Shown one piece after another: positions 7,091 through 53,855 of a DNA stretch of 64,000 nucleotides; within the stretch, counting starts at the first letter, position 1; each line of letters starts with the position of its first letter. The notes under the pieces were generated by a model, which saw only the letters and a list, made by a program, of their open reading frames with translations, was not told the DNA's origin and did no database searches. Origin of the DNA: an uncultured Planctomycetia bacterium (lineage in GTDB: Bacteria; Omnitrophota; Gorgyraeia; 2-02-FULL-51-18); the NCBI GenBank assembly GCA_964431835.1, contig CAYSKO010000001.1:137743-201742 (forward strand). Reading direction: 5' to 3'. Both the position numbers and the translations under genes were made by a program.

Positions 7091-7150
7091 ATTAATGTTT
7101 TTTTAATCGGATTCTAATGATTCATCGTTTAGATTAGTTCTTTCGCACCC
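7091..7150 (+). promoter_or_regulatory. AT-rich phased TAATC-hexamer module (copy A), uup to katE
   Basis: ATTAATGtttttTAATCGgattcTAATGA...: hexamers at 11-bp spacing, beginning directly after the uup stop TAA. Confidence 0.4.
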
Positions 7151-7181
7151 TCCCAAGTGTCAGGCTAACCGAAAGAAAACG

Positions 7182-9389
7182 ATGAAAAAATCCGATCGCA
7201 ACAATCCCGGTTCCAAGCCCATCCCCTACCTGAAAGACGCCAAAAAGAAACCGGTCACCAACGACAAGGTGGCGGACCTCCAGAAAAACACTGAAAAAGG
7301 AGTCGAAGATTCCTTTTTAACGACGAATACCGGCCTCCGGATTAACGACGATCAGAACTCGCTCAAAGCTGGGGACCGCGGCCCGTCCCTCCTCGAAGAC
7401 TTTCATTTAAGGGAAAAGATCACTCATTTCGACCACGAGCGCATCCCGGAGCGGATCGTTCATGCCCGGGGATCCGCGGCGCACGGTTTTTTCCAGGTTT
7501 ACGAATCTCTCGCGCCGTTGACCAAGGCGAAATTCCTCCAAGACCCCGCGGCAAAAACCCCGGTCTTCGTCCGCTTTTCGACGGTAGCTGGTTCGCGCGG
7601 CTCGACGGACTTGGCCCGTGACGTGCGCGGCTTCTCGGCCAAGTTTTACACCGAAGAGGGGAATTACGACCTCGTCGGCAACAACATGCCCGTGTTCTTC
7701 ATCCAGGACGCCATGAAGTTCCCGGATCTCGTTCACGCGGTCAAGCCCGAGCCGCATCACGAGATGCCTCAAGCGGCATCCGCCCACGACACCTTCTGGG
7801 ATTTCATCTCCCTGATGCCGGAATCCGCGCACATGGTCATGTGGCTTATGTCCGACCGCGCGATTCCCCGCAGTTACCGGATGATGGAAGGCTTCGGCGT
7901 CCACACCTTCCGCCTGATCAACGAAAAAGGCAAGGCGCGGTTCGTGAAGTTCCATTGGAAACCCGTTCTCGGCCTCCAATCGGTGGTTTGGGACGAGGCT
8001 CAGAAAATTTCCGGAAAAGACCCTGATTTTCACCGGCGGGATCTCTGGGAATCGATCGAGAACGGCGATTATCCGGAATGGGAACTCGGTCTCCAGATCG
8101 TCGAAGAGGAAGACGAGCACAAATTCGATTTCGACCTGTTGGACCCCACCAAGCTCATTCCCGAGGAGCTAGTGCCCGTTCGGCGGGTCGGCAAGCTCAC
8201 GCTGAACCGGAACCCCGACAATTTCTTCGCGGAAACGGAACAGGTGGCGTTTCATCCCGGCCACGTCGTCTCGGGGATCGATTTCTCGAACGACCCCCTT
8301 CTTCAGGGGAGGCTTTTTTCCTATACGGACACGCAGCTCATCCGGCTCGGGGGGCCTAACTTCAACGAGCTTCCGATCAACCGGCCGATCGCCCCGGTGC
8401 ACAACAATCAGCGCGACGGGTTCGGTCGGCAGACGATCAACCCCGGCTCGGTCAGCTACGAGCCAAATTCGATCGGCGGGGGGATGCCCGCCCAGGCGAA
8501 AGCGGCGATGGGCGGTTTCGTCAGCCATATGGAGAAAATAAGCGCGGCGAAGATACGCGGACGGAGCGAAAGCTTCCTGGATCATTTCAGTCAGGCGGCG
8601 CTTTTTTTCAACAGCCAGTCCGAAACGGAAAAAACGCACATGGTCCAGGCGCTCCGCTTCGAACTTGGGAAAGTGGAACGCCCGGAGATCCGGAAGCGGA
8701 TGGTGGGCATTCTTTCGCTCATCGACAAATCCCTCGCCGAACGCGTGGCCAAGGGCCTCGGCATCGAAGTGCCCGTCCCGGAGCAGCCGATCAACCACAG
8801 CGTCCCGGCGGACGCCGATCCGGCGAAACTGCAGCCGAAGCGCGTCAAAAAACAGCAGGCGCCTTCTCCCGCGCTCAGCATCGCCCGCGCTCCAAAGAAG
8901 GGAATCAAGACGCGGAAGGTCGCGTTTCTGGCCGCCGACGGCGTGGACGACGATTCGCTGGAGTCCGTGAAGGAGGCCCTTCTAGCCGAAGGAGCTCTCG
9001 TGAAGATCGTGGCGCCGAGGCTCGGGTTCCTGCGAAGCGCGAAAGGAAAGGAAATAAAGATCGATTTCAGTCTGCTCACGACCGCGTCGGTTCTCTTCGA
9101 CGCGGTGTACGTGCCGGGCGGCGAGAAGAGTGTCACGGCGCTCAAGGAAGAGGCCTCCGCGATCCACTTCGTCAATGAGGCGTACAAGCACTGCAAATCC
9201 GTCGCGGCGGCGGGGGCGGGTCTCAAGCTGATCGAGGCTTCCTTCATTGGCACCGGAAGTGAAGAGGCTGGCGTGGTTTTAAGCGCGGATCCGAAAGCAC
9301 CGAAGCTGGCTAAAGCCTTCGTGAAGGCGATCGAGGAGCAGCGCCACTGGAGCCGGGAAACGAAGGACGAGGTCCCCGTCCCGGCTTGA
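7182..9389 (+). CDS. katE: Large-subunit catalase HPII with C-terminal DJ-1/PfpI-like domain
   Basis: [33 protein letters not shown] and a 735-aa length are typical of HPII catalase. Confidence 0.9.
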
Positions 9390-9392
9390 GGT

Positions 9393-9456
9393 CTTTTTTA
9401 ATTTTTAATGTATTTCTAATCTATTTCTAATCCTTCTCTGCCATACTATTCGTTCT
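9393..9456 (+). promoter_or_regulatory. AT-rich phased TAATC-hexamer module (copy B), katE to BNR gene
   Basis: TAATGTatttcTAATCTatttcTAATCCttctc... followed by CATACT. Confidence 0.4.
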
Positions 9457-9487
9457 TTAGCGTTCGCTTACTATTAACAGCAGCGGG

Positions 9488-11761
9488 GTGAGTATGGATA
9501 GATTTGTTCGTTTCGTCGGTGCGGCCGTTCTCTTTTTCGGGTTTTTCGGTTCCGTGGCGGATGCGGCGGATCCGCGTCTGATTCTCTCGAAGGGGAAGGC
9601 GTCGTTCGGAACGCAGGACACGCGGCGCGGGGGCTCACCCGAAAGCCTGCAAGCCGCCGAAACCGCCCAAGCCGCCGCTATCTCGCACAAGAACGCACTC
9701 CAGGAACCTTCTAATTTTCTTTCCGCTCAAGCCGCCCCCTCTTTGATCGAGCCGTCCGTGACGGCACCGACCCAGGTCGGCTGGTCGGGCGGCAGCACGT
9801 ACCCCGCGATCGTCTACGATCCGAAAATCCGCGGCCGGGCGTATACGCTTTCGGATTCCTCCGGCTTCTATCGCTCCGAAAACGGAGGCGCTACGTGGCA
9901 AGCCGCCAATCAGGGCGTCGTGAACCTCGCGGTCGCGTCGCTCGCCATCGCCCCGTCAAATTCCAACGTTCTCTACATGGGTTCGACCGCCGGCGTGCAC
10001 CGCTCGAACGACGCCGGAAAGACCTGGACCTTCTCCGAGGCGTCGCGCGGGAAGATCCCGTTTAAAAGGCTCGCGAGTTACAAGGCGCTCGCCGTCGACG
10101 CGCTGAACGTCAATAAAGTGTACGCGGGCTCCTCGGCTGGCCAGGTGTTCCATTCCGCCGACGGGGGAACGAGCTGGACGCAGGTGGGAACGCTCGCCAT
10201 CGGCGTGCCGGTGAGCGCGCTCCACCTGACGCGCGACGGCAGGCTCTTCGCCGGTTCTTCGAAAGGCCTCATGACGTACCAGGGCGGGACGTGGCAAAAG
10301 GTCGCACTCAAGAGCGACCACGTGTACGACATCGTCTCGATCATGCACAACGGCAAGGAGACGCTTTACGTCACGAACGGCCGCAACGTCGCTCATTCGA
10401 GCGACCTCGGCGTCCCGACGGTGTGGTGGTACGCCGGCATGGTGCCGAAATTCAACGCCGCGACGGACGGATGGATCAACCGCATCGCGGTGAGGCAGCA
10501 TCCGAGAACCGGCAAGGTCGAGGTGCTCGCGTCGCTTAAAAAGGACTGGAACGGCCGCCTTTTCCTGGGTACGAACCACGGCGAGTCGTGGAAGGAGATC
10601 GGTCTCAATTTCAACAACGACCCTCTCGCGAATCCGACGCGCGAGTGGAAGAAAAGCGGCGCGAACCAGTGGCTCGCCGTCGCGTTCGACCCATTCAATA
10701 CCGAGACGTTCACGATCGCCGACGACTGGGGCCTCTGGAAGACGACCGACTCCGGCGCGAGCTGGAACGAAAGCATCGCGGGCACGCCCAACGTGATGGG
10801 GACCTCGATCGTTCGCGATCCGCTCACGGGCACTTATCTCGTGGGCACGATGGACAACGGCCTGGTCGAGCTGAATCCGCAGACGGGCGCGATGAAGGCG
10901 GTGTTTCCGAACGCCTCGACTCCCTGGCAGCTTCATGGCCACGTCTGGAAGGCGGAAGTGCTTCCGAACGGAAACCGGATTCTTGCGGTTTCGCCTTGGA
11001 ACAGTGCGTCGAACGTCGTGGTCGTGGTGCGTCCCGACGGAACGACGGCCCTCGCGAACGGCCTTCCGGCGCTCTATCCCAAGACGAACACCGTCTGGGA
11101 GAAGGGCTACATGCGCACGCTCGCGGTCGATCCGTCGAACCCGGATAAACTTTACCTGGGAATCGACGGCAACGACGGCGGCGGACTTTACGTCTCCACG
11201 GACGGGGGGCTCAACTGGGCGCGTTCCGCGGGTCAGCCCGCGTCGCTCCGTGTCTACAACGGCCTCGCGGTCGATCCCGTCGAAACGAACCGCCTTTTCT
11301 GGGGAGCGATGGGTTCCGGCGGTGGCGTGTACCGTTCGCTCGACGCGGGCGGTACGTGGACGCGCGTGTTCACCGGCTCCTACAACGTCTCGGACGTGGT
11401 CGTCGGCCCGGATCAAACGGTGTACGCCGGAGGCGATACCGGTGGCCCCGCGCTTTACGTTTCGCGCGACAAGGGCGCGACGTGGGGAATGCTTAAGAAA
11501 TTCGAAGGCACGGGCACGCTTCAGGCGATCACGATCGACCCGAACGATCCCAAGCGTATGGTCGTGAGCTCCCGCAAATGGGGCGACTCCACGGGCGCGA
11601 AAGTCTATTTCACGGCGGACGCCGGAAAGACGTGGAAGGAAGTCGCCGCAACCGGCCTGCCTAATACGTCCGGAGCCGCGGACGCCGTTTTCAGCCAGGA
11701 CGGAAAATCGCTGTATCTTCTCATGACCGCCGGTTCTCTTTACCAGGTACCGCTCCCGTGA
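9488..11761 (+). CDS. Secreted BNR/Asp-box repeat protein (sialidase/GH74-like double beta-propeller), paralog 1
   Basis: Signal peptide plus at least 8 S-x-D-x-G-x-T-W motifs (SENGGATW, SNDAGKTW, SADGGTSW and others). An ATG at 9494 is an alternative start. Confidence 0.65.
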   Translation: MSMDRFVRFVGAAVLFFGFFGSVADAADPRLILSKGKASFGTQDTRRGGSPESLQAAETAQAAAISHKNALQEPSNFLSAQAAPSLIEPSVTAPTQVGWSGGSTYPAIVYDPKIRGRAYTLSDSSGFYRSENGGATWQAANQGVVNLAVASLAIAPSNSNVLYMGSTAGVHRSNDAGKTWTFSEASRGKIPFKRLASYKALAVDALNVNKVYAGSSAGQVFHSADGGTSWTQVGTLAIGVPVSALHLTRDGRLFAGSSKGLMTYQGGTWQKVALKSDHVYDIVSIMHNGKETLYVTNGRNVAHSSDLGVPTVWWYAGMVPKFNAATDGWINRIAVRQHPRTGKVEVLASLKKDWNGRLFLGTNHGESWKEIGLNFNNDPLANPTREWKKSGANQWLAVAFDPFNTETFTIADDWGLWKTTDSGASWNESIAGTPNVMGTSIVRDPLTGTYLVGTMDNGLVELNPQTGAMKAVFPNASTPWQLHGHVWKAEVLPNGNRILAVSPWNSASNVVVVVRPDGTTALANGLPALYPKTNTVWEKGYMRTLAVDPSNPDKLYLGIDGNDGGGLYVSTDGGLNWARSAGQPASLRVYNGLAVDPVETNRLFWGAMGSGGGVYRSLDAGGTWTRVFTGSYNVSDVVVGPDQTVYAGGDTGGPALYVSRDKGATWGMLKKFEGTGTLQAITIDPNDPKRMVVSSRKWGDSTGAKVYFTADAGKTWKEVAATGLPNTSGAADAVFSQDGKSLYLLMTAGSLYQVPLP

Positions 11762-12666
11762 CGGATCCCGCCCGTTCCACCCCGATGCCGAAAGCGTCGA
11801 TTCTCATCGTCGACGACGTGCCGGCCAATCTCATTGCGCTGGAAGCGGTTCTTTCCGAATACGACGTCGTGTCGGCGAAATCCGGCCAAGAGGCTTTGGA
11901 TGTCTTGAAGGACCGAAACTTCAACGTGATCCTCCTCGACATCCAAATGCCGGGAATGGACGGCTTCGAAGCAGCGCGCCGCATGAAGCAGATGAGCACG
12001 TACCACGGCACGCCGATCATCTTCGTCACGGCGAACTTCAAGGACGACCCGTACGTGAAAAAAGGATACGAAGCGGGCGGCGTCGATTACTTCACGAAAC
12101 CTTTCGACCCGGACATCCTTCGGATGAAGGTCGGTATCTACGCGTCGTTCCATCAGAAGACGAGCCTCCTCAAGGAGCGCGAAGAAAGGATCCGGCAATC
12201 GGAGGAACTGTTGAAAGCGGGCCATAAGCTGGCCGGGGTCCTCGAATCGCTCCCCGTGGGGGTGATCATCTCAGACGCCAAGGGAGGCATTCTCCAGACG
12301 AACGACGCGGTGCTCCGGATTTGGAAATCCATCGATCCGTCGCGGAAGGATTCCGCCGGAGAATTCTTGAAATGGTGGACGACGGCGGGAACGGCCATGA
12401 AAGACGCGTTCGCGACGACGTTAAGCACCGGTAGCTCGTCCCACAACGAGGTGCTCGACATCCAGTGCTTCGACGGAACCTGCAAGGCGATCTTGGTTTC
12501 CGTCTCTCCGCTCCTGGGAATCGACGACCAGATGGTAGGCGCCGTCGCCGTCGCCCAGGACATCACCGAGCACCGGAAGATCGAAGCCCACATGGAGGAG
12601 AGCATCATGAAGCTCGTTTCTATCGGCGTCGAGCTCCAGCAGATCGGCCCCACCGCTCCCGCCTGA
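11758..12666 (+). CDS. Response regulator with receiver plus PAS domain
   Basis: ILIVDDVPANL...LLDIQMPGMDG receiver followed by a PAS-like segment. GTG at 11758 overlaps the upstream stop; an ATG at 11785 is also possible. Confidence 0.7.
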   Translation: MTDPARSTPMPKASILIVDDVPANLIALEAVLSEYDVVSAKSGQEALDVLKDRNFNVILLDIQMPGMDGFEAARRMKQMSTYHGTPIIFVTANFKDDPYVKKGYEAGGVDYFTKPFDPDILRMKVGIYASFHQKTSLLKEREERIRQSEELLKAGHKLAGVLESLPVGVIISDAKGGILQTNDAVLRIWKSIDPSRKDSAGEFLKWWTTAGTAMKDAFATTLSTGSSSHNEVLDIQCFDGTCKAILVSVSPLLGIDDQMVGAVAVAQDITEHRKIEAHMEESIMKLVSIGVELQQIGPTAPA

Positions 12667-12671
12667 CAGGC

Positions 12672-12765
12672 TTAGAATTAGCTTTTTTTAATCCGCTTCT
12701 AATCCCGCTTTAATCCGTCCTTTCGTATACTGATTTCATCGTCGGATCCGCCTTTTCGTATCATT
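12672..12765 (+). promoter_or_regulatory. AT-rich phased TAATC-hexamer module (copy C) with duplicated TTTCGTATACT / TTTCGTATCAT boxes
   Basis: TTAATCCgcttcTAATCCcgcttTAATCCgtccTTTCGTATACT, then CCTTTTCGTATCAT. Confidence 0.45.
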
Positions 12766-12801: not shown

Positions 12802-13317
12802 ATGCCCGCTAAAAAAAGCTCCAACAGCTCTACCGCCAGCAAGAAGAAGTCCAAGACGTACATCGATCTTCTCATCGCCGACCACGACAAAGTACGCGCG
12901 CTCTTCAAGCGGTTCGAAAAGACCGAAGACGACGATCAGAAGCGCGAAATCGTCGAGACCACGATCCTCGAGCTCAAGATTCATGCGACGATCGAAGAGG
13001 AGATCGTGTATCCCGCCTTCCGTGAGAACGAGGTCGTGGAAGAGGACATGATGGACGAGGCGGACGTCGAGCACGAAGTCGCCAAAAACCTCATCGCCGA
13101 GCTCGAGAACATGAAGCCGGGCGACGAATACTACGACGCGAAATTCACGGTGCTTTGCGAAATCATCGAGCACCACGCCGAGGAGGAAGAGGAAGAGATC
13201 TTCCCCGAAGCGCGTAAATCGAAAGAGATCGACGCGGAAGACATTACGGGCCGCGTCGCGGACCGCAAGCAGCAGCTGATGCAGGAACTCGGCGCGGAGC
13301 TCGCGGAAGCAAAATAA
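12802..13317 (+). CDS. Hemerythrin HHE cation-binding domain protein
   Basis: Repeated H/E ligands (IADHDK, IHATIEEE, VEHEV, IIEHHAEEEEE). RBS is AACGGAGGA. Confidence 0.7.
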   Translation: MPAKKSSNSSTASKKKSKTYIDLLIADHDKVRALFKRFEKTEDDDQKREIVETTILELKIHATIEEEIVYPAFRENEVVEEDMMDEADVEHEVAKNLIAELENMKPGDEYYDAKFTVLCEIIEHHAEEEEEEIFPEARKSKEIDAEDITGRVADRKQQLMQELGAELAEAK

Positions 13318-13628: not shown

Positions 13629-14135
13629 CTAGGACGCTCTTTCCAGAGCGAGAAGAACGCGCTTCGTGTTCTTCGGCCCGGAATAGCCGCCGGTCTTGCC
13701 GGAAGCGTTGATCACGCGGTGGCAGGGAACGACGATGCAGAGGGGGTTTTTTCCGTTCGCGCCGCCGACGGCACGAACCGCCTTAGGGTTACGGATCCGC
13801 CGCGCGACGGCCGCGTAGGAGCACGTTTCTCCGTACGGGATCTCGCTCAGGGCTTTCCACACTTTTTTCTGGAAAGCGGAGCCTTCCGGGTCGAGCGGCA
13901 GATCGAATTCCCGTCGTTTTCCGGCGAAATAGTCTTCGAGTTGCTTCACCGCGCGGGCCAGCAGCTTGGCTTCGGCCGTACGGCCGTCCAGCGACCGAAT
14001 CACGGGAGCGTGCTGCTTCCGCCAGAACACGCCCTGAAGTCCTTTTGCGGACGCGACGAGATAAAGGGGGCCGATCTTCGATTTCATGAGCCACTGTGCC
14101 GCCATTTTTTCCTCCCAGCCTTCTCTTTTAGACAT
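13629..14135 (-). CDS. ogt: Methylated-DNA-protein-cysteine methyltransferase
   Basis: Active site motif IVVPCHRVI and helix-turn-wing PYGETCSYAAVA. Confidence 0.85.
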   Translation of the reverse strand: MSKREGWEEKMAAQWLMKSKIGPLYLVASAKGLQGVFWRKQHAPVIRSLDGRTAEAKLLARAVKQLEDYFAGKRREFDLPLDPEGSAFQKKVWKALSEIPYGETCSYAAVARRIRNPKAVRAVGGANGKNPLCIVVPCHRVINASGKTGGYSGPKNTKRVLLALERAS

Positions 14136-14378
14136 AAAAGCACTATAAGCTGCATCGCCGCCCCATCAAAGTCTTTATCTTATACCGTGTATAAATTCTC
14201 TTTCGAATCCGGTTGCCGTCCGGCGGGTCCGATGATAACCTAATCGCACTTACCGTGAGCCCACTTCCGACATGAACCTCGAGCATTTCGCGAGTATCGC
14301 CTCGCACGATCCCCTGAGCACGCCCGGCCAGGGTTCGACGTTCATTGCCGAGCTCCAGGCGAAGATCGTGATGAGCGC

Positions 14379-15290
14379 GTGAAGGACATCAATTTAGAGA
14401 TAGTGCGCGTCACGGAGGCGGCGGCGATCGCCGCGGCTTCGTGGGTGGGGAGCGGGAACAAGAAAGCCGCCGACAAAGACGCGACCGACGCGATGCGCGT
14501 GCGTCTCTCGGCAATCGACTTCCGCGGCCGCGTGATCATCGGCGAAGGCATCAAGGACGAGAGCGCGGGCCTCTTCGCGGGGGAAACGGTCGGATGCGGC
14601 GGGGAGAAGTCTAAGATCTACGACATCGCGGTCGATCCGATCGAGGGGACGCGGCCCACGGTCCAGTCCGGGCCGGAGGCGCTGAGCGTGCTCGCGGTGG
14701 CGGGCAAGGACGCGCTTTTTTCGACCGCCGAATTCTACATGAAGAAGTTCGCCTACGGCCCCGCGATTGCGGAGAAGACGAAGCTCTCCATCGCGGACCC
14801 TCTTCCCGAGACGATCCGGAAGATATCCGCGGCGACGGGGAAGGACCCCGGCCGGGTCATGGTCTGCGTGCTCGACCGCCCTCGCCATGAAGGCCTGATC
14901 GCTGAGCTGCGCTCGCTCGGGACCCGCATCAAACTGATCCAGGACTGCGACGTCTCGGGCGGCATCGCGACGTGCCTCGAGCGAAGCGGCATCGACCTTC
15001 TCTGCGGCATCGGCGGCTCACCGGAAGGCGTTATCACCGCCTGCGCGATCAAATGCCTGAAAGGGGACTTCCAGGCGCAGATCGTGAAGAAGGACGGCAC
15101 GGTGGAACAGCGCGTCCTCGGCCTCGAAGATCTCGTTAAGGGTCCGTGCGCATTCGCAGCGACGGGAATCACCGACGGCAGCCTTCTTCGCGGTGTCCGC
15201 TTCGATCCTTCCGGCCCCCGCACCCACAGCGTTTTCATGCGCTCGATCAGCGGAACGATCCGCTGGATCAGCGCCTCCCACGGAAACTAA
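14379..15290 (+). CDS. glpX: Fructose-1,6-bisphosphatase class II
   Basis: N-terminus LEIVRVTEAAAIAAASWVGSGNK and the metal-binding region are GlpX-like. Confidence 0.85.
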   Translation: MKDINLEIVRVTEAAAIAAASWVGSGNKKAADKDATDAMRVRLSAIDFRGRVIIGEGIKDESAGLFAGETVGCGGEKSKIYDIAVDPIEGTRPTVQSGPEALSVLAVAGKDALFSTAEFYMKKFAYGPAIAEKTKLSIADPLPETIRKISAATGKDPGRVMVCVLDRPRHEGLIAELRSLGTRIKLIQDCDVSGGIATCLERSGIDLLCGIGGSPEGVITACAIKCLKGDFQAQIVKKDGTVEQRVLGLEDLVKGPCAFAATGITDGSLLRGVRFDPSGPRTHSVFMRSISGTIRWISASHGN

Positions 15291-15396
15291 CGCCCTCACG
15301 ACCTCCGGCCCGAGTTTTCTCCTTCCGTTATATTAATATCCGCTTAACCGAGCCGTAACATGGCGCGGCTATACTCCACATCAGAAAGCGGAGATC

Positions 15397-16086
15397 ATGG
15401 AAGAAAAGCGTCAGCTCGAGGTTCTTTACCAAATCAGCCGGGAACTCGTGGGGAAGCAGGATCTCGACGCGATCCTGCAGCAGGTGGTCAGCATGACCTC
15501 GCAGTTGATCGATTCCAAGATTTGCTCTTTGATGCTCCTGGACACCAAACGGGAGCGACTCGTCATCAAGGCGACGCAGAGCTTGAGTCTCGCCTACAGG
15601 GATAAGCCGCCGATCCGCGTGGGCCAGAGCGTGAGCGGGCAGGTGGTATCGCGCAAGGAACCGATCCAGGTCGCCGACGTGTCGAAAGATCCGCTTTACG
15701 GGTACCCGGACCTCGCGCGGCAGGAGGGGTTCAAATCGCTGCTCTGCGTTCCGCTCCTTCTGGCAGACAGGGTGATAGGGGTGCTGAACTCCTACACGGA
15801 AGCGGAACGGACGTTCTCAAAAGAGGAGGTCCAACTTGTTCAGACGGTTGCGAATCAGGCGGCTATGGTCATCGAGCACGCCCGGCTTATCTCCGAGGAA
15901 GCGCAAGCCCGTCTCTCGCTCGAGACGAAAAAGGCGGTGGACGCGGCCAAGCGGCTCCTGATCAAGTCGCGCGGAATGTCGGAGGAGGACGCGCACCGGT
16001 TCATCCAGAAGGCCAGCATGGAGAAGAACAGGCCCCAGAAGGAAATCGCCGACGCGATCCTGATGGCGGCCGATCTGACGAAGTGA
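15397..16086 (+). CDS. GAF-ANTAR RNA-binding antiterminator-type regulator
   Basis: GAF core, then a C-terminal ANTAR helix region (AVDAAKRLLIKSRGMSEEDAHRFIQKASMEKNRP). TATACT at 15370-15375 gives a 21-nt leader. Confidence 0.7.
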   Translation: MEEKRQLEVLYQISRELVGKQDLDAILQQVVSMTSQLIDSKICSLMLLDTKRERLVIKATQSLSLAYRDKPPIRVGQSVSGQVVSRKEPIQVADVSKDPLYGYPDLARQEGFKSLLCVPLLLADRVIGVLNSYTEAERTFSKEEVQLVQTVANQAAMVIEHARLISEEAQARLSLETKKAVDAAKRLLIKSRGMSEEDAHRFIQKASMEKNRPQKEIADAILMAADLTK

Positions 16087-16198
16087 ACGGACGGTTTTAA
16101 AAGAACGAACGACCGATGGGGATAATGACGTCCTTATCTTGAAGAGGCCGAAGGCGGCTTCCTCGGGGTAAGGATTTTTTCATTCATAGGAGGCAGCG

Positions 16199-16342
16199 AT
16201 GAATAACGCGGTTTACGGTCTCACGGAAAAAGCGGTTTCGATCTGGATGCGGATCAACGAACGAATGGCGGAGGACGAACGGCGCCGGGAAAACGAAAGG
16301 GTGTGGATGATCTGCACGACCGACCGCGGAGCGAGAGCCTGA
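16199..16342 (+). CDS. Candidate 47-aa small ORF in the 290-nt leader between the ANTAR gene and the PII genes
   Basis: Strong SD TAGGAGG 7 nt upstream of ATG. Stop TGA is in frame with the downstream PII gene. Confidence 0.25.
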   Translation: MNNAVYGLTEKAVSIWMRINERMAEDERRRENERVWMICTTDRGARA

Positions 16343-16378
16343 GGTGCTCACCGGAGAGAAGGACGCGGGGCCGTCCGC

Positions 16379-16729
16379 GTGAAGGAAGTGATGGCTGTCG
16401 TGCGCCCCGGAAAAGCGCGCGAGACGATGGAAGCGCTTGCGCGGATGGGCTGCCCCGCCTCGACCTCTTTTCGCGTGTTCGGACGCGGCCGGCAGAAAGG
16501 CCTGCGCTACGCCTCCGCCGAAATCGGCGCCCAGGAGATCACGGTCCGGTATCTTCCCAAGAAAATGATTCTTTGCGTCGTGCCCGACCGGCACTGGCGC
16601 GCGACGGTGCAGACGATCATCCGAGTCAACCAATCCGGCCAGTTCGGCGACGGCAAGGTGTTCGTCTCCGATATCAGGGAAACCTGCCGTATCCGCACCG
16701 GCGAAACTCAGGATGCCGCGCTTCGATGA
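16379..16729 (+). CDS. PII-family (GlnB-like) signal transduction protein, divergent, member 1
   Basis: T-loop GRGRQKG and B-loop GQFGDGKVFVSDI. An ATG at 16391 is an alternative start. Confidence 0.7.
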   Translation: MKEVMAVVRPGKARETMEALARMGCPASTSFRVFGRGRQKGLRYASAEIGAQEITVRYLPKKMILCVVPDRHWRATVQTIIRVNQSGQFGDGKVFVSDIRETCRIRTGETQDAALR

Positions 16730-17043
16730 AGATGATCAAGGCCGTGATACGGCCCGAAAAGGAATTCGACGTGGTCGGAGGTCTCGAGAAAGAGGGGTTC
16801 AATTCGCTCACGAAGCTCGACGTGCTCGGCAGGGGTCGCCAGAAAGGCGTGCGCGTCGGCGGAGCCGTTTACGACGAGCTCGCGAAGCTCCTCATTTACA
16901 TCGTCGTCGAGGACAAAGACGCGTCGCGTGTCGTCGAGACGATCAAGAAGCACGCGCACACGGGAAACTTCGGCGACGGAAAGATATTTATCTCCGACGT
17001 CCGCGAAGCCTACACGATCCGGACTGGAAAAAACCGCCTTTAG
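16726..17043 (+). CDS. PII-family signal transduction protein, divergent, member 2
   Basis: MKMIKAVIRP, GRGRQKG and GNFGDGKIFISDV. ATGA overlap with the upstream PII stop. Confidence 0.7.
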   Translation: MKMIKAVIRPEKEFDVVGGLEKEGFNSLTKLDVLGRGRQKGVRVGGAVYDELAKLLIYIVVEDKDASRVVETIKKHAHTGNFGDGKIFISDVREAYTIRTGKNRL

Positions 17044-17103
17044 CATGATTCTGGTCGAAATGCGTCTCGGCCCCCTCCTCATCCTACCGCGCCTTGCCAC
17101 CGG

Positions 17104-18149
17104 ATGATCGGCTCCGAAGCGGCGCTCGCGGCGGTCCTTTCGCACGCGCCCCGTCCGAAATCCGTTTCTGCGCCACTTCTTGCCGCGCTCGGGCACGTCG
17201 CGGCCCGCGACGTGAAATCTCCGCAGCCTTCGCCTCTCTTCGATAATTACGCGATGGACGGTTTCGCTTTTTCATCGGCATCGTCGGCCACCGCGGCCGC
17301 CGGGTCGCCGGTGCGGCTCCGGGTGACGGGCGCCGTCCGCGCCGGAGACGCCGTCGGGCCTCTCGGTTCCGGCGAAGCGGTGCGCATCATGACCGGAGCG
17401 GCCCTGCCTTTCGGCGCGGACACCGTGCTCCCGAATGAACGCGTGCTGACCGACCGGGATACGCTCGTCCTCCTCGAACCTGTCCGAGCGGGCGAGAACG
17501 TGCGTTACCGTGCGGAGGAATTGAAGAAAGGCGACGTCCTGCTACGCAAAGGCGCTCCGATCCACGCCGCCGCGGTGGGGATTCTCGCGGGCTTCGGGAT
17601 CCGGACGGTGGAAGCGTACGAATTTCAGCGTGTCGCGGTGATCGCGACTGGAAATGAACTGCGCTCGCCCGGAGAGGCGCTCGGCCCCGCGCAGATCTAC
17701 AATTCGAATTCCTGGATGATCCACGCGGCGCTCGTCCAAATGGGTATCCGGCCGATGTTTTGCAAACGCGTGGGGGATCACGCGGTCCACATCAAGAGGC
17801 TTCTCAAGTTCGCGCTCGCCCAGGCCGACGTCGTCATTTTGAGCGGGGGCGTTTCCGTGGGGGGCGCGGATCCGGTGAAGCCCCTCCTCCGAGACCTCGG
17901 GGTGCGTACGCTCTTTTGGAAGGTGAGCCAGAAACCCGGGAAGCCCCTTTTTTTGGCAAGCTCTCGAAGACGCTCGTCTTCGGCCTTCCGGGCAATCCGG
18001 CGGCGGTGTTCACCTATTTTTACGAGTACGTTTATCCCGCGATCCGCCGCATGTCCGGATTCGAGGAGCCGCGCCTGCGCCGCGAAGAGCTCGCGGTGGA
18101 AGAGCCGGTCGCGTCCGATCCCGAGAAATCCCTCAGCGCGCGCGAATAA
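17104..18149 (+). pseudogene. moeA: Molybdopterin molybdotransferase MoeA, reading frame broken by a 1-nt indel in a T7 run (17948-17954)
   Basis: NYAMDGFAF, GDHAV, KPGKPL in frame 1, then FFGKLSKTLVFGLPGNP in frame 0. Restoring a T8 gives a contiguous MoeA. Confidence 0.6.
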
Positions 18150-18167
18150 AAAGAGGGACCTCAAGAT

Positions 18168-18232
18168 CCATTAGAATCCTCTAATCCGCGTTTAATCCCT
18201 CTCTAATGCGCACTGTGCAATAATCTTCTCGC
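18168..18232 (+). promoter_or_regulatory. AT-rich phased TAATC-hexamer module (copy D), moeA to BNR paralog 2
   Basis: TTAGAATCCtcTAATCCgcgttTAATCCctctcTAATGC, then TGTGCAATAAT. Confidence 0.4.
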
Positions 18233-18289
18233 TCGACAATTTCCAAACCCATTTACCAGCATCTACAGTCATCCACAGGGGCGCCCTCC

Positions 18290-40747: not shown

Positions 40748-40800
40748 TTAAAAAAAATTAATCCAAAATTAAGCTCTCCTTAATCGCTCCGGGAGTATGC
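40747..40800 (+). promoter_or_regulatory. AT-rich phased hexamer module (copy K) ending in TATGCT
   Basis: TGATTAAaaaaaatTAATCCaaaatTAAGCTctcctTAATCG...GAGTATGCT. Confidence 0.4.
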
Positions 40801-40820
40801 TGTCGAGAGGAGGTCCAAGA

Positions 40821-44379: not shown

Positions 44380-44445
44380 TCAATTAAAAATTTTTAATAA
44401 TATTCTAACCCGTCCTTAACGTCCTTTCGGTTATCCTAACTCTCG
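44380..44445 (+). promoter_or_regulatory. AT-rich phased hexamer module (copy L)
   Basis: TAAaaattttTAATAAtattcTAACCCgtccTTAACG...TATCCTAACTC. Confidence 0.4.
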
Positions 44446-45055: not shown

Positions 45056-45445
45056 ATGACGACGACCCGTAACGTGAAGCTTCTTTTGATCGAAGACGAC
45101 CAGGACGACGCGCTGCTTTTCGAAGAAACCCTCTCGAGCGTCGACGATTCGCTGAAAGTGAAGATGGAGTGGGTGGACAGTCTAGAGGAAGGCCTCGAAC
45201 GCATCGTGGGCGGCGGTTACGACGTGATCTTCCTGGATTTGTCGCTGCCGGGTACGCATGGGATCGACACTTTCCTCACACTACACAACCAGTACCCCAT
45301 TTTGCCGATCGTCATCCTCACGGGCTTCACGCACGACTCGTTCGCGGACGAAGCCCGGCGCCAGGGCGCCCACGATTATCTTGTCAAAGGCGACATCGAC
45401 GGCGACGCGCTGACCCGCGTGCTGACCTCCCTCTTCGAAGACTGA
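45056..45445 (+). CDS. Single-domain response regulator (receiver)
   Basis: KLLLIEDDQDD...FLDLSLPGTHG...LTGF. Confidence 0.75.
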   Translation: MTTTRNVKLLLIEDDQDDALLFEETLSSVDDSLKVKMEWVDSLEEGLERIVGGGYDVIFLDLSLPGTHGIDTFLTLHNQYPILPIVILTGFTHDSFADEARRQGAHDYLVKGDIDGDALTRVLTSLFED

Positions 45446-45450: not shown

Positions 45451-45505
45451 ATTAGAATTTTCTAATCGGATTCTAACCCGCCTTTAACTTCGCTTTTCGT
45501 ATACT
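45451..45505 (+). promoter_or_regulatory. AT-rich phased hexamer module (copy M) with TTTAAC-11-TATACT
   Basis: ATTAGAAttttcTAATCGgattcTAACCCgccTTTAACttcgcttttcgTATACT. Confidence 0.45.
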
Positions 45506-45555: not shown

Positions 45556-46173
45556 ATGGTCACACGAAAGATCCAGCACGCCGCGTTCGCGGCATTCACC
45601 TTGGCCGCACTTCTTCCGTTCTCCGATCCCGCGCTGTCCTTTTGGAACGCGCGCATGGACGTATTGACGCCCGCTCCGGCTCCGCCGGTACCGATGCGCC
45701 TGTACGAGCCGCCCGCGCGACGAGCCATCTTGGTCGATGCCGACGGCCTCGCTCAAAAGACCGCGGACGGTATCTGGATGACCAAGCGCGACCGTAGCCG
45801 CGTATTGATCGAGGACCGGCGTGAAACCCGCCGCGGAATCCCGGTGTACGTGCATCCGGAATCTTCCCCCGTGCTCACCCGGGGAGACGGAAGCGCAGAG
45901 TACACAGCGGCGGAACGCCGTATCGACGTCACCGAACCCGCGGAAGCGCCCGTGTCGGACGAAGTTCTCGCCGCGCGTGTCCGCGAAGCGGTGACCGCCG
46001 AGGAGGCGCTTTATATCGCGGCGCTCAACGTGCGCATTGAAGCCTCCGCTGGGGTGATCACGCTCGCCGGCCGCGTCAATTCGGAAGCCGAGCGACTTGA
46101 AATCCTCGAGAAGGCGCGTCAAACGTCCGGCGTCGCCGGCGTGAACGACCGTCTCGAAACGGCCGCGCTCTAA
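45556..46173 (+). CDS. BON-domain secreted/periplasmic protein
   Basis: Signal peptide and C-terminal BON domain (ITLAGRVNSEAERLEILEKARQTSGVAGVNDRL). Confidence 0.65.
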   Translation: MVTRKIQHAAFAAFTLAALLPFSDPALSFWNARMDVLTPAPAPPVPMRLYEPPARRAILVDADGLAQKTADGIWMTKRDRSRVLIEDRRETRRGIPVYVHPESSPVLTRGDGSAEYTAAERRIDVTEPAEAPVSDEVLAARVREAVTAEEALYIAALNVRIEASAGVITLAGRVNSEAERLEILEKARQTSGVAGVNDRLETAAL

Positions 46174-46267: not shown

Positions 46268-46579
46268 ATGCGCACCCGCACCCTCGTCCTCGCTTTTTTG
46301 GCCTTCGCCTCCTCGGTCTCGGCCGACGCCGAAAAACTCGCCGGCCGGCAGTGGAAAGGGCTCAGCGAACAGCGCCGGATATACTACGTCTTCGCGATGC
46401 GCGAGAAGCTCCAGGAGAAAGGAATCGTTTTCTCCGTTCCCGCAGGCGATTATCCCGAGATGATCTCCGCAACTCTCCGAAAAACCCCCGCTTTCCTCGA
46501 CCTCGACCTCGACGACGCTTTTCTAGAGACCGTCGCGACGGTCGAGCCCGGCGCCCGCGCCATCCTTAAAAAAAACTAA
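46268..46579 (+). CDS. Small secreted protein (103 aa)
   Basis: Signal peptide. The stop codon sits inside the TAATC hexamer of module N. Confidence 0.45.
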   Translation: MRTRTLVLAFLAFASSVSADAEKLAGRQWKGLSEQRRIYYVFAMREKLQEKGIVFSVPAGDYPEMISATLRKTPAFLDLDLDDAFLETVATVEPGARAILKKN

Positions 46580-46619
46580 TCTGATTTTAACCGTTCTCTA
46601 AGGCCCCGTCGGCTAGACT
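46565..46619 (+). promoter_or_regulatory. AT-rich phased hexamer module (copy N) ending in TAGACT
   Basis: TTAAaaaaaacTAATCTgatttTAACCGttctcTAAGGC...GCTAGACT. Confidence 0.4.
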
Positions 46620-46649
46620 CTCTTTATTCCCTCGCCAATGGAGACCATC

Positions 46650-46769
46650 ATGAAAAAAGTAATGGTTGTCGACGACGTGGTCATCACCCGCGGTTTCTAC
46701 AAAGAGCTTCTTTCGCAGCAAGAATCCGCCGAGGACTCCTCTGCGGAAGAATCGATAGCCGGCCACTAA
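46650..46769 (+). pseudogene. 39-codon remnant resembling the N-terminus of a receiver domain (MKKVMVVDDVVITRGFYKELL), followed by a terminator
   Basis: CheY-like first beta-strand and helix, then a premature stop. A hairpin overlaps the stop. Confidence 0.3.
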
Positions 46770-47881: not shown

Positions 47882-48337
47882 ATGAACAAAGAAGCGGGCC
47901 CCCCGCCGCCCTCCAACGTCATATTGATCGCCGAAGACGACGAGGACGATTTCGTTCTTGCGAAAGAGGCGTTCGGGCAGCATTGTCCGATGAGCGATCT
48001 CCGCTGGGTGCGTAACGGCGAAGAGCTGATGGACTACCTGCACAAGCGCGGCCGCTTCGAGAAAGTGCCCGATCCCGCGATCATCCTACTCGATCTCAAC
48101 ATGCCGAAGATGGACGGCCGTGAAGCGCTGAAAGAGATCAAGGCGCATCCCGTACTCAAAAAAATTCCGATCGTCGCCCTCACCGGTTCCAACGACAAAG
48201 AGGACGTTTTCTTCGCCTATTCGAACGGCGTCAATTCCTTCATCCGTAAGCCGGTTGGTTTCGGCGAATTCGTCGATTTCATGAAAGTCTGTTACGAGTA
48301 CGGACTGGACCTCGTCAAGATCCCGAAGCTCGACTGA
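47882..48337 (+). CDS. Single-domain response regulator (receiver)
   Basis: ILIAEDDEDD...LLDLNMPKMDG...VALTGS. Confidence 0.75.
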   Translation: MNKEAGPPPPSNVILIAEDDEDDFVLAKEAFGQHCPMSDLRWVRNGEELMDYLHKRGRFEKVPDPAIILLDLNMPKMDGREALKEIKAHPVLKKIPIVALTGSNDKEDVFFAYSNGVNSFIRKPVGFGEFVDFMKVCYEYGLDLVKIPKLD

Positions 48338-48368: not shown

Positions 48369-49454
48369 TTGTCCGACGTTTACGACGTCTTCATTGCGGG
48401 CGGAGGCCCGTCCGGCAGCGCGCTTGCGCGTTCGCTGGCTCGCGCCGGTTTACGGACGCTGCTCGTCGAGCGTTCGTCGCCCGGCAGCGGCCGGGTGTGC
48501 GGCGGCTTCCTCGGTCCGGAGACCGCTTCCGCGTTCGAGGCGCTCGGTCTTCCGCCTCCGCCCTCGGCGCCGCTCGATACGCTCGTCCTCTCCGCGCCCC
48601 GGGTGAACGCGTTCGAACGCGCCATTCCCGGCCGTGCGTTCGGCGTGCGACGGGACGCGTTCGATGCCTGGCTCTTCGCCTCGGCCCGCGAAGCGGGCGC
48701 CGAGACGCTCGAGTCCGTTTCGTTTTCCGGCGCCGAGCGGGACGGTGGTTTATTTCGCGTGGCCCTCGCGGCTCGGAAAGGGGAGCGGTGCGTACGCGCA
48801 CGGCTCGTCGTAGTGGCCACCGGGCGCCGGCCCCACGCGCCCGGCGGCGCGGTGTCCTTCGGATCGAAAGCGCTTTACTCCGGAGTGGAGAAAATCGAAG
48901 GAAGGATCGCCTTGCATTTCGTCCGTGGCGGAAACGTGGGCTTGAATCCCGTGGGCGGCGGGCTCACGGCGCTTTGCTTTTACGTCGCGTCCAGTCGACT
49001 GCGCGAGACGCGCGGCTCGCTCGATGCGCTCGTGGAAGCTTTCGCCCGGGAAAACCCCTCTTTGGCCGCGCAGCTGGGCGCCGCGCGCCGCGAAGGAGAG
49101 TGGACGTCGTGCCAGGCGGAACCCGACGGCAGGAAAATACTGCGTTCCGAAACGGCCGTCCACGCGGGCGACTCGGTTTCGATGATTCATCCGCTCGTCG
49201 GCGGCGGGATTTCGCTCGCGCTGGCTTCAGGCGTCCTTCTTGCGGGATCGATTCGGCGAGAGGGTCCCGGCGAGCGTGCGGTTCGGCGCTACGCTGCTGA
49301 ATGGCCGCGGCGGTTCGGCCCCTCCTTCCGCTGGGCTGGCGCGGTGGGCCGCTTGCGCCGCTCGGAACGTCTCGCCGCACTCGCCCTGGGTCTTCTCCGC
49401 TCTTGTCCCGCCGCGCTGGATCCGCTCGTGCGGCGAACGCGCCCTTCAGGTTAA
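48369..49454 (+). CDS. FAD-dependent oxidoreductase (geranylgeranyl-reductase/monooxygenase-like)
   Basis: VFIAGGGPSGSALA dinucleotide-binding motif. Confidence 0.7.
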   Translation: MSDVYDVFIAGGGPSGSALARSLARAGLRTLLVERSSPGSGRVCGGFLGPETASAFEALGLPPPPSAPLDTLVLSAPRVNAFERAIPGRAFGVRRDAFDAWLFASAREAGAETLESVSFSGAERDGGLFRVALAARKGERCVRARLVVVATGRRPHAPGGAVSFGSKALYSGVEKIEGRIALHFVRGGNVGLNPVGGGLTALCFYVASSRLRETRGSLDALVEAFARENPSLAAQLGAARREGEWTSCQAEPDGRKILRSETAVHAGDSVSMIHPLVGGGISLALASGVLLAGSIRREGPGERAVRRYAAEWPRRFGPSFRWAGAVGRLRRSERLAALALGLLRSCPAALDPLVRRTRPSG

Positions 49455-49504
49455 AAATTTCTAATCGTATTTTAACCGTCCTTTAATCGCGTTTTTTGTA
49501 TCAT
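49451..49504 (+). promoter_or_regulatory. AT-rich phased hexamer module (copy O) with TTTAAT-11-TATCAT
   Basis: TTAAaaatttcTAATCGtatttTAACCGtccTTTAATcgcgttttttgTATCAT. The stop TAA lies inside the first TTAA. Confidence 0.45.
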
Positions 49505-49550: not shown

Positions 49551-50084
49551 ATGAATAAGTCGACACACCTTACGATTCTTTCTGCTCTGGCCCTTCTCGT
49601 GCCTGCCGTGCTTTTCGCTTCCGAAATCGATTCCATGTCGCGCATCGACGTGCCCGCGGGCTGGCAGACGGCTGAGCGCATCGGCTCGAGCGTGGCCCTC
49701 GCTTACAGAGCCCCTGCCGTGGCCGGCGACCACTTCGAGGAAAACGTGAATTGGGTGGTGAGCCCTCTTGAGGCGGAAACCGGGTTCGAGGAATACTCCC
49801 GCCGCGCCGTCGCCGAGGTTCTCGGAGGTGTACCCGATGCGCGCCTCCTGGAGTCGGCGCCCGACACGCTCGCCGGCGATCCGGCTTACCGGATTGTCTT
49901 CACGGGCCGGCTGGGCGCGAGGCCCATGAAATGGCTTCAAACATGGACGTTTCACGACGGGAAGATTTACGTCGCCACTTACAGCGCGGACGTCGCCGAT
50001 TACGAGTCTCGGCTGGCGGACGCCAACGAAGCGATCCGGTCCCTGCGTTTTAGGGATCCGGTCAACCAAAGGAGAACCAAATGA
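49551..50084 (+). CDS. Secreted hypothetical protein
   Basis: Signal peptide. Confidence 0.45.
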   Translation: MNKSTHLTILSALALLVPAVLFASEIDSMSRIDVPAGWQTAERIGSSVALAYRAPAVAGDHFEENVNWVVSPLEAETGFEEYSRRAVAEVLGGVPDARLLESAPDTLAGDPAYRIVFTGRLGARPMKWLQTWTFHDGKIYVATYSADVADYESRLADANEAIRSLRFRDPVNQRRTK

Positions 50085-52255: not shown

Positions 52256-52342
52256 GGGCTCCACTATAGCGTACGGCGCCCGGGCCGACAAGGGGGACCG
52301 CCGCGATTGACCGTGACGGGCGCATGGCTTAAGCTGGAAGGC

Positions 52343-53485
52343 ATGCGAAGGAAACTCCCCACTCTCATCACGGCCGTCCTTCTCTGCGCCCTTCCGGCGC
52401 TAGCGGAAACGCGCCTGCGCCTGGAGCCCGCCTTCCCGAAGCTCGAGTTCGAACGGCCCGTCGCGATGGAGGAGCCGCGTGACGGTTCGAAGCGGCTTTT
52501 CGTGGTCGAACAGCGGGGCACGATCCGTGTCTTCCGGCGAGATGTCTCGGAAAAAAGCGAGATCTTCCTCGATATTCGCGACCGCGTCGAATACGACCAA
52601 AGCGAAATGGGCCTTCTCGGACTCGCCTTTCATCCAAAATTCGCCGAGAACGGTTTTTTTTACGTCAATTACACGGCCGGCTCCCCGATGCGCACGGTGA
52701 TCGCGCGCTTCCGCGTCGATCCGAAGAATCCCGCGCTCGCCGACCGCGCGAGCGCGAAGACGATTCTTGAGATCGCCCAGCCTTACTCGAATCACAACGG
52801 CGGCCAAGTATCCTTCGGCCCCGACGGTTACCTGTACGTCGGTATGGGGGACGGGGGAGCGGCCGGCGATCCCCACGGCCACGGTCAAAACCGGAAGACG
52901 CTCCTCGGCGATTTGCTTCGCATCGACGTGGACCGCCCGACGGGAGGCCGCGCGTACGGAATTCCGCCGGACAATCCTTTCGTGGGCAACCGTGACGGTT
53001 GGCGGGAGGAAATCTACGCCTGGGGCCTTCGCAATCCCTGGCGTTTCGGTTGGGATGCCCAAGGCCGCCTGTGGCTCGCGGACGTGGGGCAGAACCGGCG
53101 CGAGGAGATCGATCTCGTCGAAAAGGGGAAGAATTACGGCTGGAACGTCATGGAAGGAAGTCTTTGTTTTAAGCCGCGCGAAGGCTGCGACAAAACCGGG
53201 CTCGAGCCTCCCGTCGCCGAGTACGGACGCGACGAGGGCGGCTGTGTCACTGGCGGCTACGTCTACGCGGGTCGGCGGGCACCGTCCCTCGCGGGCGCCT
53301 ACGTGTACGGCGATTTTCTTTCTACCCGGATTTGGACCTATCGCGCGGCCGCGCCCGGCGGCGCCCGGAACGACCTTCTCTTCGAAAGCGGCAAACAGAT
53401 CGCCTCGTTCGCGCTGGACGCCGACGGAGAGCTTTACGTGCTTGCGTTCGACGGCCGCATCTACGGCTTCACCGAAGGCCCATGA
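52343..53485 (+). CDS. PQQ-dependent soluble sugar (glucose/sorbosone) dehydrogenase-like beta-propeller
   Basis: Signal peptide. HNGG and GDGG motifs, NYGWN. Confidence 0.7.
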   Translation: MRRKLPTLITAVLLCALPALAETRLRLEPAFPKLEFERPVAMEEPRDGSKRLFVVEQRGTIRVFRRDVSEKSEIFLDIRDRVEYDQSEMGLLGLAFHPKFAENGFFYVNYTAGSPMRTVIARFRVDPKNPALADRASAKTILEIAQPYSNHNGGQVSFGPDGYLYVGMGDGGAAGDPHGHGQNRKTLLGDLLRIDVDRPTGGRAYGIPPDNPFVGNRDGWREEIYAWGLRNPWRFGWDAQGRLWLADVGQNRREEIDLVEKGKNYGWNVMEGSLCFKPREGCDKTGLEPPVAEYGRDEGGCVTGGYVYAGRRAPSLAGAYVYGDFLSTRIWTYRAAAPGGARNDLLFESGKQIASFALDADGELYVLAFDGRIYGFTEGP

Positions 53486-53787
53486 CTCCGGACGACGACG
53501 AACCGAAGGATTGGGAGCCCGTCGAAGAGGAAAAAATCCCCGAATCGCTCCAGCGCCGCTGGAACGATTACGTAAAGGAAGGCCTGCGTGCCGGCGTCTG
53601 CCGCTCGTGCGGGCATCTTTTCACCGAGGACGACCTCTCTTGCCCCGCTTGCGGCACCTGGACCGATATTCCGCGCCACGGCGTCGTTGTAGGTCTCTGG
53701 AAGTTCCTCACCGCCACGCCGTGGGGCTTCGTCACCCTGCTTCTAATCATCACCGCGGTTGCCGCCTACCTTTTTTCCGCGTACTAA
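53482..53787 (+). CDS. Zinc-ribbon protein with C-terminal TM helix
   Basis: CRSCG...CPACG. ATGA overlap with the upstream gene. Confidence 0.45.
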   Translation: MTPDDDEPKDWEPVEEEKIPESLQRRWNDYVKEGLRAGVCRSCGHLFTEDDLSCPACGTWTDIPRHGVVVGLWKFLTATPWGFVTLLLIITAVAAYLFSAY

Positions 53788-53794
53788 AACCTCT

Positions 53795-53855
53795 CATTAA
53801 AAAATTCTAATCTCATTTTAACCTCGCTTTAAGGTCGACGGGCGTATTCTCAAAT
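53795..53855 (+). promoter_or_regulatory. AT-rich phased hexamer module (copy P)
   Basis: TTAAaaaattcTAATCTcatttTAACCTcgcTTTAAGG...GCGTATTCT. Confidence 0.4.

Follow-up and report, generated by a model that had tools for sequence, protein, structure and literature searches.

Class II promoters of PhoB, such as those of E. coli pstS and phoA, are activator-dependent and carry pho boxes, which are 11-bp direct repeats placed several in tandem where the -35 element would stand. Where PhoB-dependent promoters lack a -35 element, about 10 bp separate the end of the last repeat from the -10 box. Similar repeats have been described for other response regulators. The PmrA/BasR box of Salmonella, Klebsiella and Acinetobacter is YTTAAK-N5-YTTAAK (PMC10927774). 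The cyanobacterial SphR Pho box is PyTTAAPyPy(T/A), repeated at 3-nt gaps and frequently in sets of four (PMC4195498), and the CtrA box of Alphaproteobacteria is TTAA-N7-TTAA(C) (PMC3751295). Here, a recurrent intergenic module was analysed in a stretch of 64,000 nucleotides (the window) of contig CAYSKO010000001.1, which belongs to an uncultured bacterium of the Omnitrophota. Each copy is an array of phased, TAAT-like elements followed by a -10-like box, and the proximal element ends about 10 bp upstream of this box, as in the PhoB-dependent promoters. The sequence evidence suggests that the modules are activator-dependent promoters bound by a tandemly arranged OmpR/PhoB-family regulator, that this regulator belongs to a two-component system of the Omnitrophota, and that at least 14 such promoters make up a stress island. 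We assign this reading a probability of roughly 0.72.

The aligned blocks of 15 copies, with the T of the promoter-proximal TAA as the anchor, share a single architecture of about 55 bp. It is composed of four elements: R4 (-34 to -27 from the anchor, aTTA(A/G)AAA), R3 (-23 to -18, yTAATc), R2 (-14 to -7, TTyTAAyC) and R1 (-1 to +4, yTAAb(s)). The spacing among R1, R2 and R3 is exactly 11 bp. An unconserved gap of 11 nt then leads to a -10-like box (+15 to +20, TAnnnT), and the arrangement R1-N11-TAnnnT is found in 13 of the 15 copies. There is no -35 element. At a spacing of 16-18 bp the best match has 1-3 of six bases in 14 of the 15 copies and four of six in one. All full copies are on the plus strand and each points at a downstream gene of the same strand. 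TAnnnT is our putative -10 box, and the start sites that would result are predicted from it. The distance from its end to the assigned start codon is 6-70 nt, and about 130 nt for the copy anchored at 53830, where the alignment with an orthologous gene puts the start at about 53980. The initial annotation had compared the geometry with tandem winged-helix sites of the OmpR/PhoB/CtrA type. This analogy holds well. The direct repeats have the period of 10-11 bp of an OmpR/PhoB-family operator, their orientation fits, and they overlap or replace the -35 position with the proximal repeat about 10 bp upstream of the putative -10 box. In addition, arrays elsewhere are linked to an operon for an OmpR-family regulator and its kinase, as described below.

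In total, the window has 14 strong copies of the module besides a weak and a partial one, all on the plus strand between 7.1 and 53.9 kb (Table 1). The strong copies lie where the initial annotation had put them, each in an AT-rich block flanked by two plus-strand genes. The copy at 15330 is weak, with N10 before the -10 box, and that at 29091 is partial. The sites at 39538 and 62021, also proposed as weak copies, are not copies. The latter is a canonical sigma-70-type promoter, TTTACG-N17-TATATT at 62030-62058, before an outer-membrane beta-barrel gene (62108-62722). Therefore, the organism also uses ordinary -35/-10 promoters.

The occurrence of the module is not random. The pattern TAAY-N7-TAAY-N7-TAAB was found 14 times in the window, always on the plus strand, against 0.00 times in 100 dinucleotide shuffles. 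In the histogram of TAA-to-TAA spacings on the plus strand, 11 bp accounts for 32 pairs, whereas most other spacings have 1-3 each. The proposed 11-bp phasing is thereby confirmed as beyond chance. The initial annotation had named AT-rich, stop-proximal composition as the explanation that would undo its claim. A shuffle confined to the intergenic segments (55% G+C; the window as a whole has 62%, not the 65% first given) yielded 0.99 pairs where 31 were observed and 0.008 TAA triples where 15 were observed. Therefore, such composition does not explain the pattern. A position weight matrix was made from the copies, which score 45-65 bits, and 31-58 bits with each copy left out. On the minus strand of the window it gave no hits and nothing above 8 bits, and its maximum on both strands of about 1.3 Mb of control loci from other bacteria was 19.5 bits. 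This control DNA (about 1.33 Mb) consists of loci found with the Tex protein of the window, mostly of Proteobacteria at about 60% identity, and includes one Chthoniobacteraceae metagenome-assembled genome (MAG) at 68% identity. An independent repeat finder also recovered the module family, at 60-78% identity with only the core positions conserved. Since the identity among copies is only 60-78%, they are diverged copies and not a mobile repeat. Features of miniature inverted-repeat transposable elements or repetitive extragenic palindromes were not seen either, as the copies lack near-identity and terminal repeats, point the same way as the downstream gene and have a constant register to the -10 box. 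The earlier view of a binding or promoter architecture rather than a mobile repeat is thus upheld. An Rfam search of the window gave no match.

The module is conserved in other contigs and is linked there to a two-component operon. A metagenome collection was scanned with the strict module pattern, and at least 116 loci (0.72 Mb) were obtained, which are unrelated contigs found by motif alone. Their G+C content is 16-65% and most of them score 40-63 bits with the window matrix. Among the loci listed, the positions that the search pattern does not select also match the window consensus, in contigs of 30-65% G+C. An OmpR-family regulator is encoded in 29 of the 116 listed loci, and its DNA-binding domain is 43-74% identical to one reference in 25 of those 29; the search for this regulator in the control DNA gave only two weak hits. 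A partner HAMP-HisKA-HATPase kinase is encoded in 42 of the 116. In 31 of the 116 loci, the kinase gene ends 31-172 bp before the start of an array on the same strand. The order of this cassette is regulator, kinase, array and target gene, and in three loci (L092, L104, L132) an array lies upstream of the regulator gene itself. Ten regulators derived from the pattern search are 65-86% identical, among the listed loci, to regulators from MAGs labelled Omnitrophica. The genes that recur after arrays elsewhere encode single-domain response regulators, small secreted proteins, DUF5666, BON, GH15, RRM and Hsp20 proteins.

The linkage was also seen from the protein side. The locus L085, found via a homologue of a BNR protein of the window, encodes the regulator and carries an array of 34.6 bits 1.5 kb from the kinase gene, before a convergent gene. 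A protein search with the L085 regulator retrieved a large family of 63-81% identity, whose named members are all Omnitrophica. Three further loci (L209, L210, L211) were selected by regulator homology alone. Right after the kinase gene, L211 carries an array of 52.5 bits and L210 one of 35.1 bits. Taken over the four loci of regulator homologues, the module directly follows the kinase gene in two and is 1.5 kb away in one. Another contig, P0294 from a different sample, ends inside the kinase gene. Conservation is also seen at a target gene. L106 carries an orthologue of the window RRM gene with a protein of 73% identity, and the four elements and TATTCT are kept in register there, while the 5' untranslated region has diverged with indels.

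The array-linked regulators were compared with protein family models. They reach 237-274 bits with TIGR01387, the heavy-metal regulator subfamily of NCBIfam (cut-off 279.2), 183-203 bits with TIGR02154 for PhoB (cut-off 296), 151-199 bits with NF007928 for PmrA (cut-off 330) and 143-191 bits with NF045991 for CtrA (cut-off 350). The next-ranked models after the heavy-metal subfamily are RppA, CusR and HprR, all below their cut-offs. The kinase has 278.7 bits with TIGR01386 (cut-off 292.55). The closest solved DNA-binding domains are those of PcoR (2JZY), Thermotoga DrrD and M. tuberculosis PhoP, and BasR/PmrA is also a clear relative. The regulator is an equivalog of neither PmrA nor CtrA, and its taxon is Omnitrophota. 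A Pho regulon is not indicated, as there is no PhoB equivalog, the kinase is of the HAMP type and neither pst nor phoU genes were found after any of the arrays. By these sequence comparisons the array-linked system is a member of the CusR/PmrA clade of the OmpR family and no orthologue of any characterised regulator.

The module was also compared with the described systems. The pho core is CTGTCAT, whereas the module has TAAT/TAAC; the module-linked regulator has 193-203 against 296 bits for PhoB, and phosphate-uptake genes are absent from the module targets. The PmrA/BasR half-site and its 11-bp period are nearly the same as in the module, and some array contigs carry four CTTAAK units before ArnB/ArnT-like genes. 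However, most half-sites of the window read yTAAyC (CTAATC, CTAACC) and not TTAAK, the module has four elements where the PmrA box has two, the linked regulator reaches 194-199 bits where the PmrA model asks for 330, and the module occurs in Omnitrophota with stress genes as its targets. The SphR box, with its 8-bp unit and 3-nt gap, also has an 11-bp period, is often tetrameric and has a similar core. On the other hand, 61-182 nt separate the SphR boxes from the start sites downstream, while the module abuts the -10 box, and both the regulon and the regulator subfamily are unlike those of the module. CtrA shares the TTAA-N7-TTAA spacing, membership in the OmpR family and single-domain response regulators among its targets, but it belongs to another phylum, the module-linked regulator has 185-191 against 350 bits and cell-cycle genes are not among the module targets. 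The CusRS/CopRS/PcoRS/HprRS systems provide the best family matches (TIGR01387, 251-274 bits; TIGR01386, 279 bits), and their target gene likewise adjoins the regulatory operon. They differ in that no copper efflux or oxidase genes follow the window arrays.

These likenesses bear on the question of which regulator acts here. A different OmpR/PhoB-family regulator, either a phosphate regulator of the PhoB/SphR type or an envelope regulator of the PmrA type, could bind the module in place of the CusR-like system. Such a regulator would agree with the resemblance of the repeat unit to the cyanobacterial Pho box and the PmrA box, with the phosphoesterase-type genes nearby, with the absence of a regulator gene from the window and with the CTTAAK arrays of L095, L101, L115 and L118, which precede a PmrA-like target set (ArnB-, ArnT- and GT2-like). 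It is nevertheless unlikely, given that the array-linked regulators stay below the cut-offs of the PhoB, PmrA and CtrA models, that the linked kinase is of the HAMP type and lacks the PAS domain of PhoR, and that the pst/phoU genes are missing after the arrays. Furthermore, the likeness of the window arrays to the kinase-adjacent ones extends to positions that the pattern did not select.

The distribution of the arrays is restricted. Within the window they are absent from the housekeeping genes, namely those for phosphoenolpyruvate (PEP) carboxylase, LeuCD, Tex, GlpX, MoeA, a pseudouridine synthase and a SPOUT methylase. No array was found in the first 7 kb of the window or in the 10 kb upstream of it (L207), nor in the last 10 kb or in the 9-10 kb or so past the right end (L082). 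Contigs matching the window occur in the JGI metagenomes 3300020596 and 3300020057, in two Logan runs and in an NCBI assembly. The homologues of the window PEP carboxylase that carry names (55-65% identity) are all from Candidatus Omnitrophica/Omnitrophota, and three 20-kb PEP carboxylase housekeeping loci of other Omnitrophota have no arrays. The suggestion of a global factor with one site per 4 kb was therefore overstated, as the copies are confined to 7-54 kb and none is present in 17 kb to the left, in 19 kb to the right or in the three housekeeping loci. A phylum-wide housekeeping promoter type was rejected because of the housekeeping genes without the module, and promoters of the sigma-B, sigma-28 or extracytoplasmic function type were rejected because neither the spacing nor the -10 box fits them.

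A promoter without any regulator was also considered. The arrays would then be phased, A/T-rich UP-like or curved-DNA elements that boost a promoter with only a -10 box, or they would be recognised by an alternative sigma factor. This would agree with their location at -60 to -24, which overlaps the UP-element zone, with the resemblance of R4 to an A-tract and with a well-conserved -10 box in the absence of a -35 element. However, the phased UP element or bend that the initial annotation had offered becomes less likely because specific TAAT cores, and not A/T content alone, are conserved; TAAT/TAAC cores are kept in contigs of 30-63% G+C. The gap of 11 or 22 nt to the -10 box does not suit the -35/-10 spacing of the sigma-70 family. 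The module is missing from the housekeeping genes in the window and its surroundings, one of which has a classical -35/-10 promoter, and the linkage to the regulator/kinase operon is strong. This makes a regulator-independent promoter quite improbable. Still weaker is the idea that a nucleoid-associated or silencing protein coats the AT-rich DNA and represses the island. The AT-rich islands in a genome of 62% G+C, their clustering in one region and the partial copy at 29091 without a promoter might suggest such a protein, but the fixed -10 register, the orientation shared by all copies with their downstream genes and the equal conservation of the motif in genomes of 30-45% G+C, where AT-richness is not distinctive, make it very improbable. 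Finally, the pattern could be an artefact of AT-rich composition around stop codons or what is left of a decayed mobile repeat, and one could cite the TAA stop codons overlapping some elements. This reading is refuted by the intergenic shuffles (0.99 pairs against 31), the divergence of the copies, the lack of terminal repeats and the retention at orthologous positions in other organisms.

A mechanism can be proposed for the activator-dependent promoters. The four phased elements would stand in for the -35 element. If TAnnnT is placed at -12 to -7, the leading T's of R4, R3, R2 and R1 would fall at about -60, -49, -38 and -27. The elements would be head-to-tail sites for a phosphorylated winged-helix response regulator of the OmpR/PhoB family, probably two dimers, and the promoter-proximal protomer would end about 10 bp upstream of the -10 box. 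The regulator would replace -35 recognition and, like PhoB and PmrA/BasR, recruit RNA polymerase with a sigma factor of the primary type. The candidate is the two-component system conserved across Candidatus Omnitrophota, whose closest named relatives are CusR/CopR/PcoR, HprR and PmrA. In most genomes it would drive the gene directly after its own kinase gene. In this lineage the operator appears to have spread to at least 14 promoters within 47 kb, which would create a co-regulated island of stress-type genes (catalase, hemerythrin, BON, BrkB, baeRF, RRM protein, BNR proteins and small response regulators). We infer from the sequence that the array-linked regulator binds these sites and that it activates rather than represses. 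The signal that it would sense is a guess, namely oxidative, envelope or general stress, as hinted by catalase, hemerythrin and the DJ-1/PfpI neighbours.

Several observations weigh against this assignment to the CusR/PmrA-like system. A winged-helix regulator and a matching kinase are not encoded in the window or in the 10 kb on either side, and the cognate protein of this organism has thus not been seen. No array lies near the regulator gene of L209. In L085, the orthologues of the BNR and hemerythrin genes are without arrays, so regulon membership is not conserved gene by gene. Both the regulator and the kinase fall just below the heavy-metal cut-offs, although these models are their best matches. 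To our knowledge, the boxes known for the CusR/CopR clade are neither TAAT repeats nor tetramers, and no usable description of a CusR or HprR box was found in the literature. Lastly, the spacing between R4 and R3 is 10 bp and not 11 bp, and the sequence of R4 is unlike that of the other elements. R4 might be an element of another type, such as a UP-like one.

The mechanism, an OmpR-family activator on phased direct repeats, is a textbook one, and this member of it is uncharacterised. It is distinguished by its uncultured phylum, by four elements in strict -10 register and by the spread to about 15 promoters within 47 kb. We found no literature on transcriptional regulation in Omnitrophota, and we know of almost no cultured representatives of this phylum. 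A high-information operator of about 55 bp together with a conserved two-component system could be valuable, as whole regulons might be predicted from metagenomes. The module also nominates genes of a coordinated stress response, such as those for catalase, hemerythrin, BON, BrkB, RRM and baeRF proteins and small response regulators, and it would be a clear example of regulon growth by operator spread within a gene cluster. More tentatively, one CusR/PmrA-like system found throughout the Omnitrophota might act as a master switch for stress or dormancy, with its four-site operator copied in some lineages before dozens of genes as strictly activator-dependent promoters without a -35 element, in a compact regulon island. 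We regard this extension as a rather doubtful proposal. If it is true, the regulon could be read straight from the sequence in any Omnitrophota genome.

Table 1. Copies of the module in the window, with the genes downstream of them. Scores are those of the window matrix.
Feature	Position	Strand	Anchor	Elements and -10-like box	Score (bits)	Downstream genes
Array + promoter	7088-7135	+	7115	TAAT cores at 7093, 7104, 7115; TAGATT	48.1	Catalase (HPII type, large-subunit), 7182-9389
Array + promoter	9394-9449	+	9428	TACTAT or CATACT	46.9	BNR/sortilin-like, 9494-11761; then receiver-PAS
Array + promoter	12677-12731	+	12711	TATACT	61.3	Hemerythrin, 12802-13317
Weak array	15322-15375	+	15356	TAAT/TAAC/TAAC, N10, TATACT	24.6 (4.9 when left out)	GAF-ANTAR, 15397-16086
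Array + promoter	18170-18224	+	18204		57.6	Second BNR/sortilin-like, 18290-20575
Array + promoter	22589-22643	+	22623	TAGGAT	50.1	baeRF, radical SAM, CHASE-GGDEF run, 22691-26624
Array + promoter	26628-26682	+	26662	TAGAAT	58.0	Small gene of unknown function, ~26697-27101
Partial array	29089-29126	+		R4-R2 only (ATTAAT, CTAATC, TTTAAG); no R1, no -10 box	14.2	
Array + promoter	31944-31998	+	31978	TAGACT	55.6	Metallophosphoesterase, 32005-32799
Array + promoter	38156-38210	+	38190	TACCAT	59.2	Small membrane peptide, GDSL-like, radical SAM
Array + promoter	40747-40801	+	40781	TATGCT	57.4	BrkB/YihY family (ATG 40821)
Array + promoter	44383-44437	+	44417	TATCCT	64.8	Small open reading frames; single-domain response regulator, 45056-45445
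Array + promoter	45451-45505	+	45485	TATACT	62.9	BON domain, 45556-46173
Array + promoter	46565-46619	+	46599	TAGACT	64.8	43-aa receiver-like open reading frame, 288-aa gene, response regulator, FAD oxidoreductase
Array + promoter	49450-49504	+	49484	TATCAT	64.2	Unknown 177-aa gene, 49551-50084
Array + promoter	53796-53850	+	53830	TATTCT	65.5	RRM RNA-binding protein (ATG ~53980)

The genes directly downstream of the arrays form a stress-like set. It comprises catalase, the two BNR/sortilin-like paralogues, hemerythrin, GAF-ANTAR, the run of baeRF, radical SAM and GGDEF genes, metallophosphoesterase, BrkB/YihY, BON, single-domain response regulators, the RRM protein and several small unknowns. 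In the array anchored at 31978, 6 nt lie between the TAGACT box and the metallophosphoesterase ATG, and the transcript of this gene is therefore probably leaderless. The partial array takes up the 28 nt between the SPOUT methyltransferase and Tex genes, which are convergent. It may have decayed from a full copy or may serve as a binding site on its own. Its position had been taken as an argument against a purely promoter role. Because this copy is truncated and has no -10 box, it says little on that point. It had also been stated that the first element is usually the stop codon of the upstream gene, which was found in only 6 of 15 cases, counting any upstream stop inside an element. Three TAAs that are 11 bp apart occupy all three frames, so an open reading frame (ORF) running into an array must end there. 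With the tight packing of the genes, the stop overlap needs no functional explanation, and a functional link to stop codons was rejected.

Some further observations concern the genes near the arrays. The two BNR/sortilin-like genes are paralogues, both array-driven, with DNA segments that are 72-79% identical. Few close homologues of them exist in the protein collection; outside this organism, the top matches have 58% and 52% identity. Receiver-only and receiver-PAS response regulators are unusually concentrated in the array cluster (11758-12666, 21500-21988, 45056-45445 and 47882-48337), and the segments 21731-21790 and 48080-48139 have 80% DNA identity. The array anchored at 46599 precedes a 43-aa ORF at 46638-46769 (METIMKKVMVVDDVVITRGFYKELLS...), perhaps a truncated gene, which resembles a receiver-domain N-terminus. 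In L088, L098, L123 and L176, arrays are followed by full-length single-domain regulators of 120-129 aa. The right-hand flanking locus L082 holds a very large ORF (14055-20615, at least 2447 aa) for which Pfam records no entry. It continues beyond the end of this locus, which lies about 9 kb to the right of the window.

In a lineage of 42-45% G+C (L101, at 2151 and 7767, L095, L115 and L118), the arrays are four CTTAAK units with 11-bp spacing. They precede ArnB-like (DegT) and ArnT-like (PMT_2) genes, which adjoin the same kind of regulator/kinase pair, and the target set resembles the lipid A modification genes of PmrAB. In three independent contigs of Omnitrophota (L210, 9418-9996; L212, 9320-9988; L213, 981-1649), the gene immediately upstream of the regulator gene belongs to the DJ-1/PfpI family, and the array-driven catalase of the window carries a C-terminal domain of the DJ-1/PfpI type.

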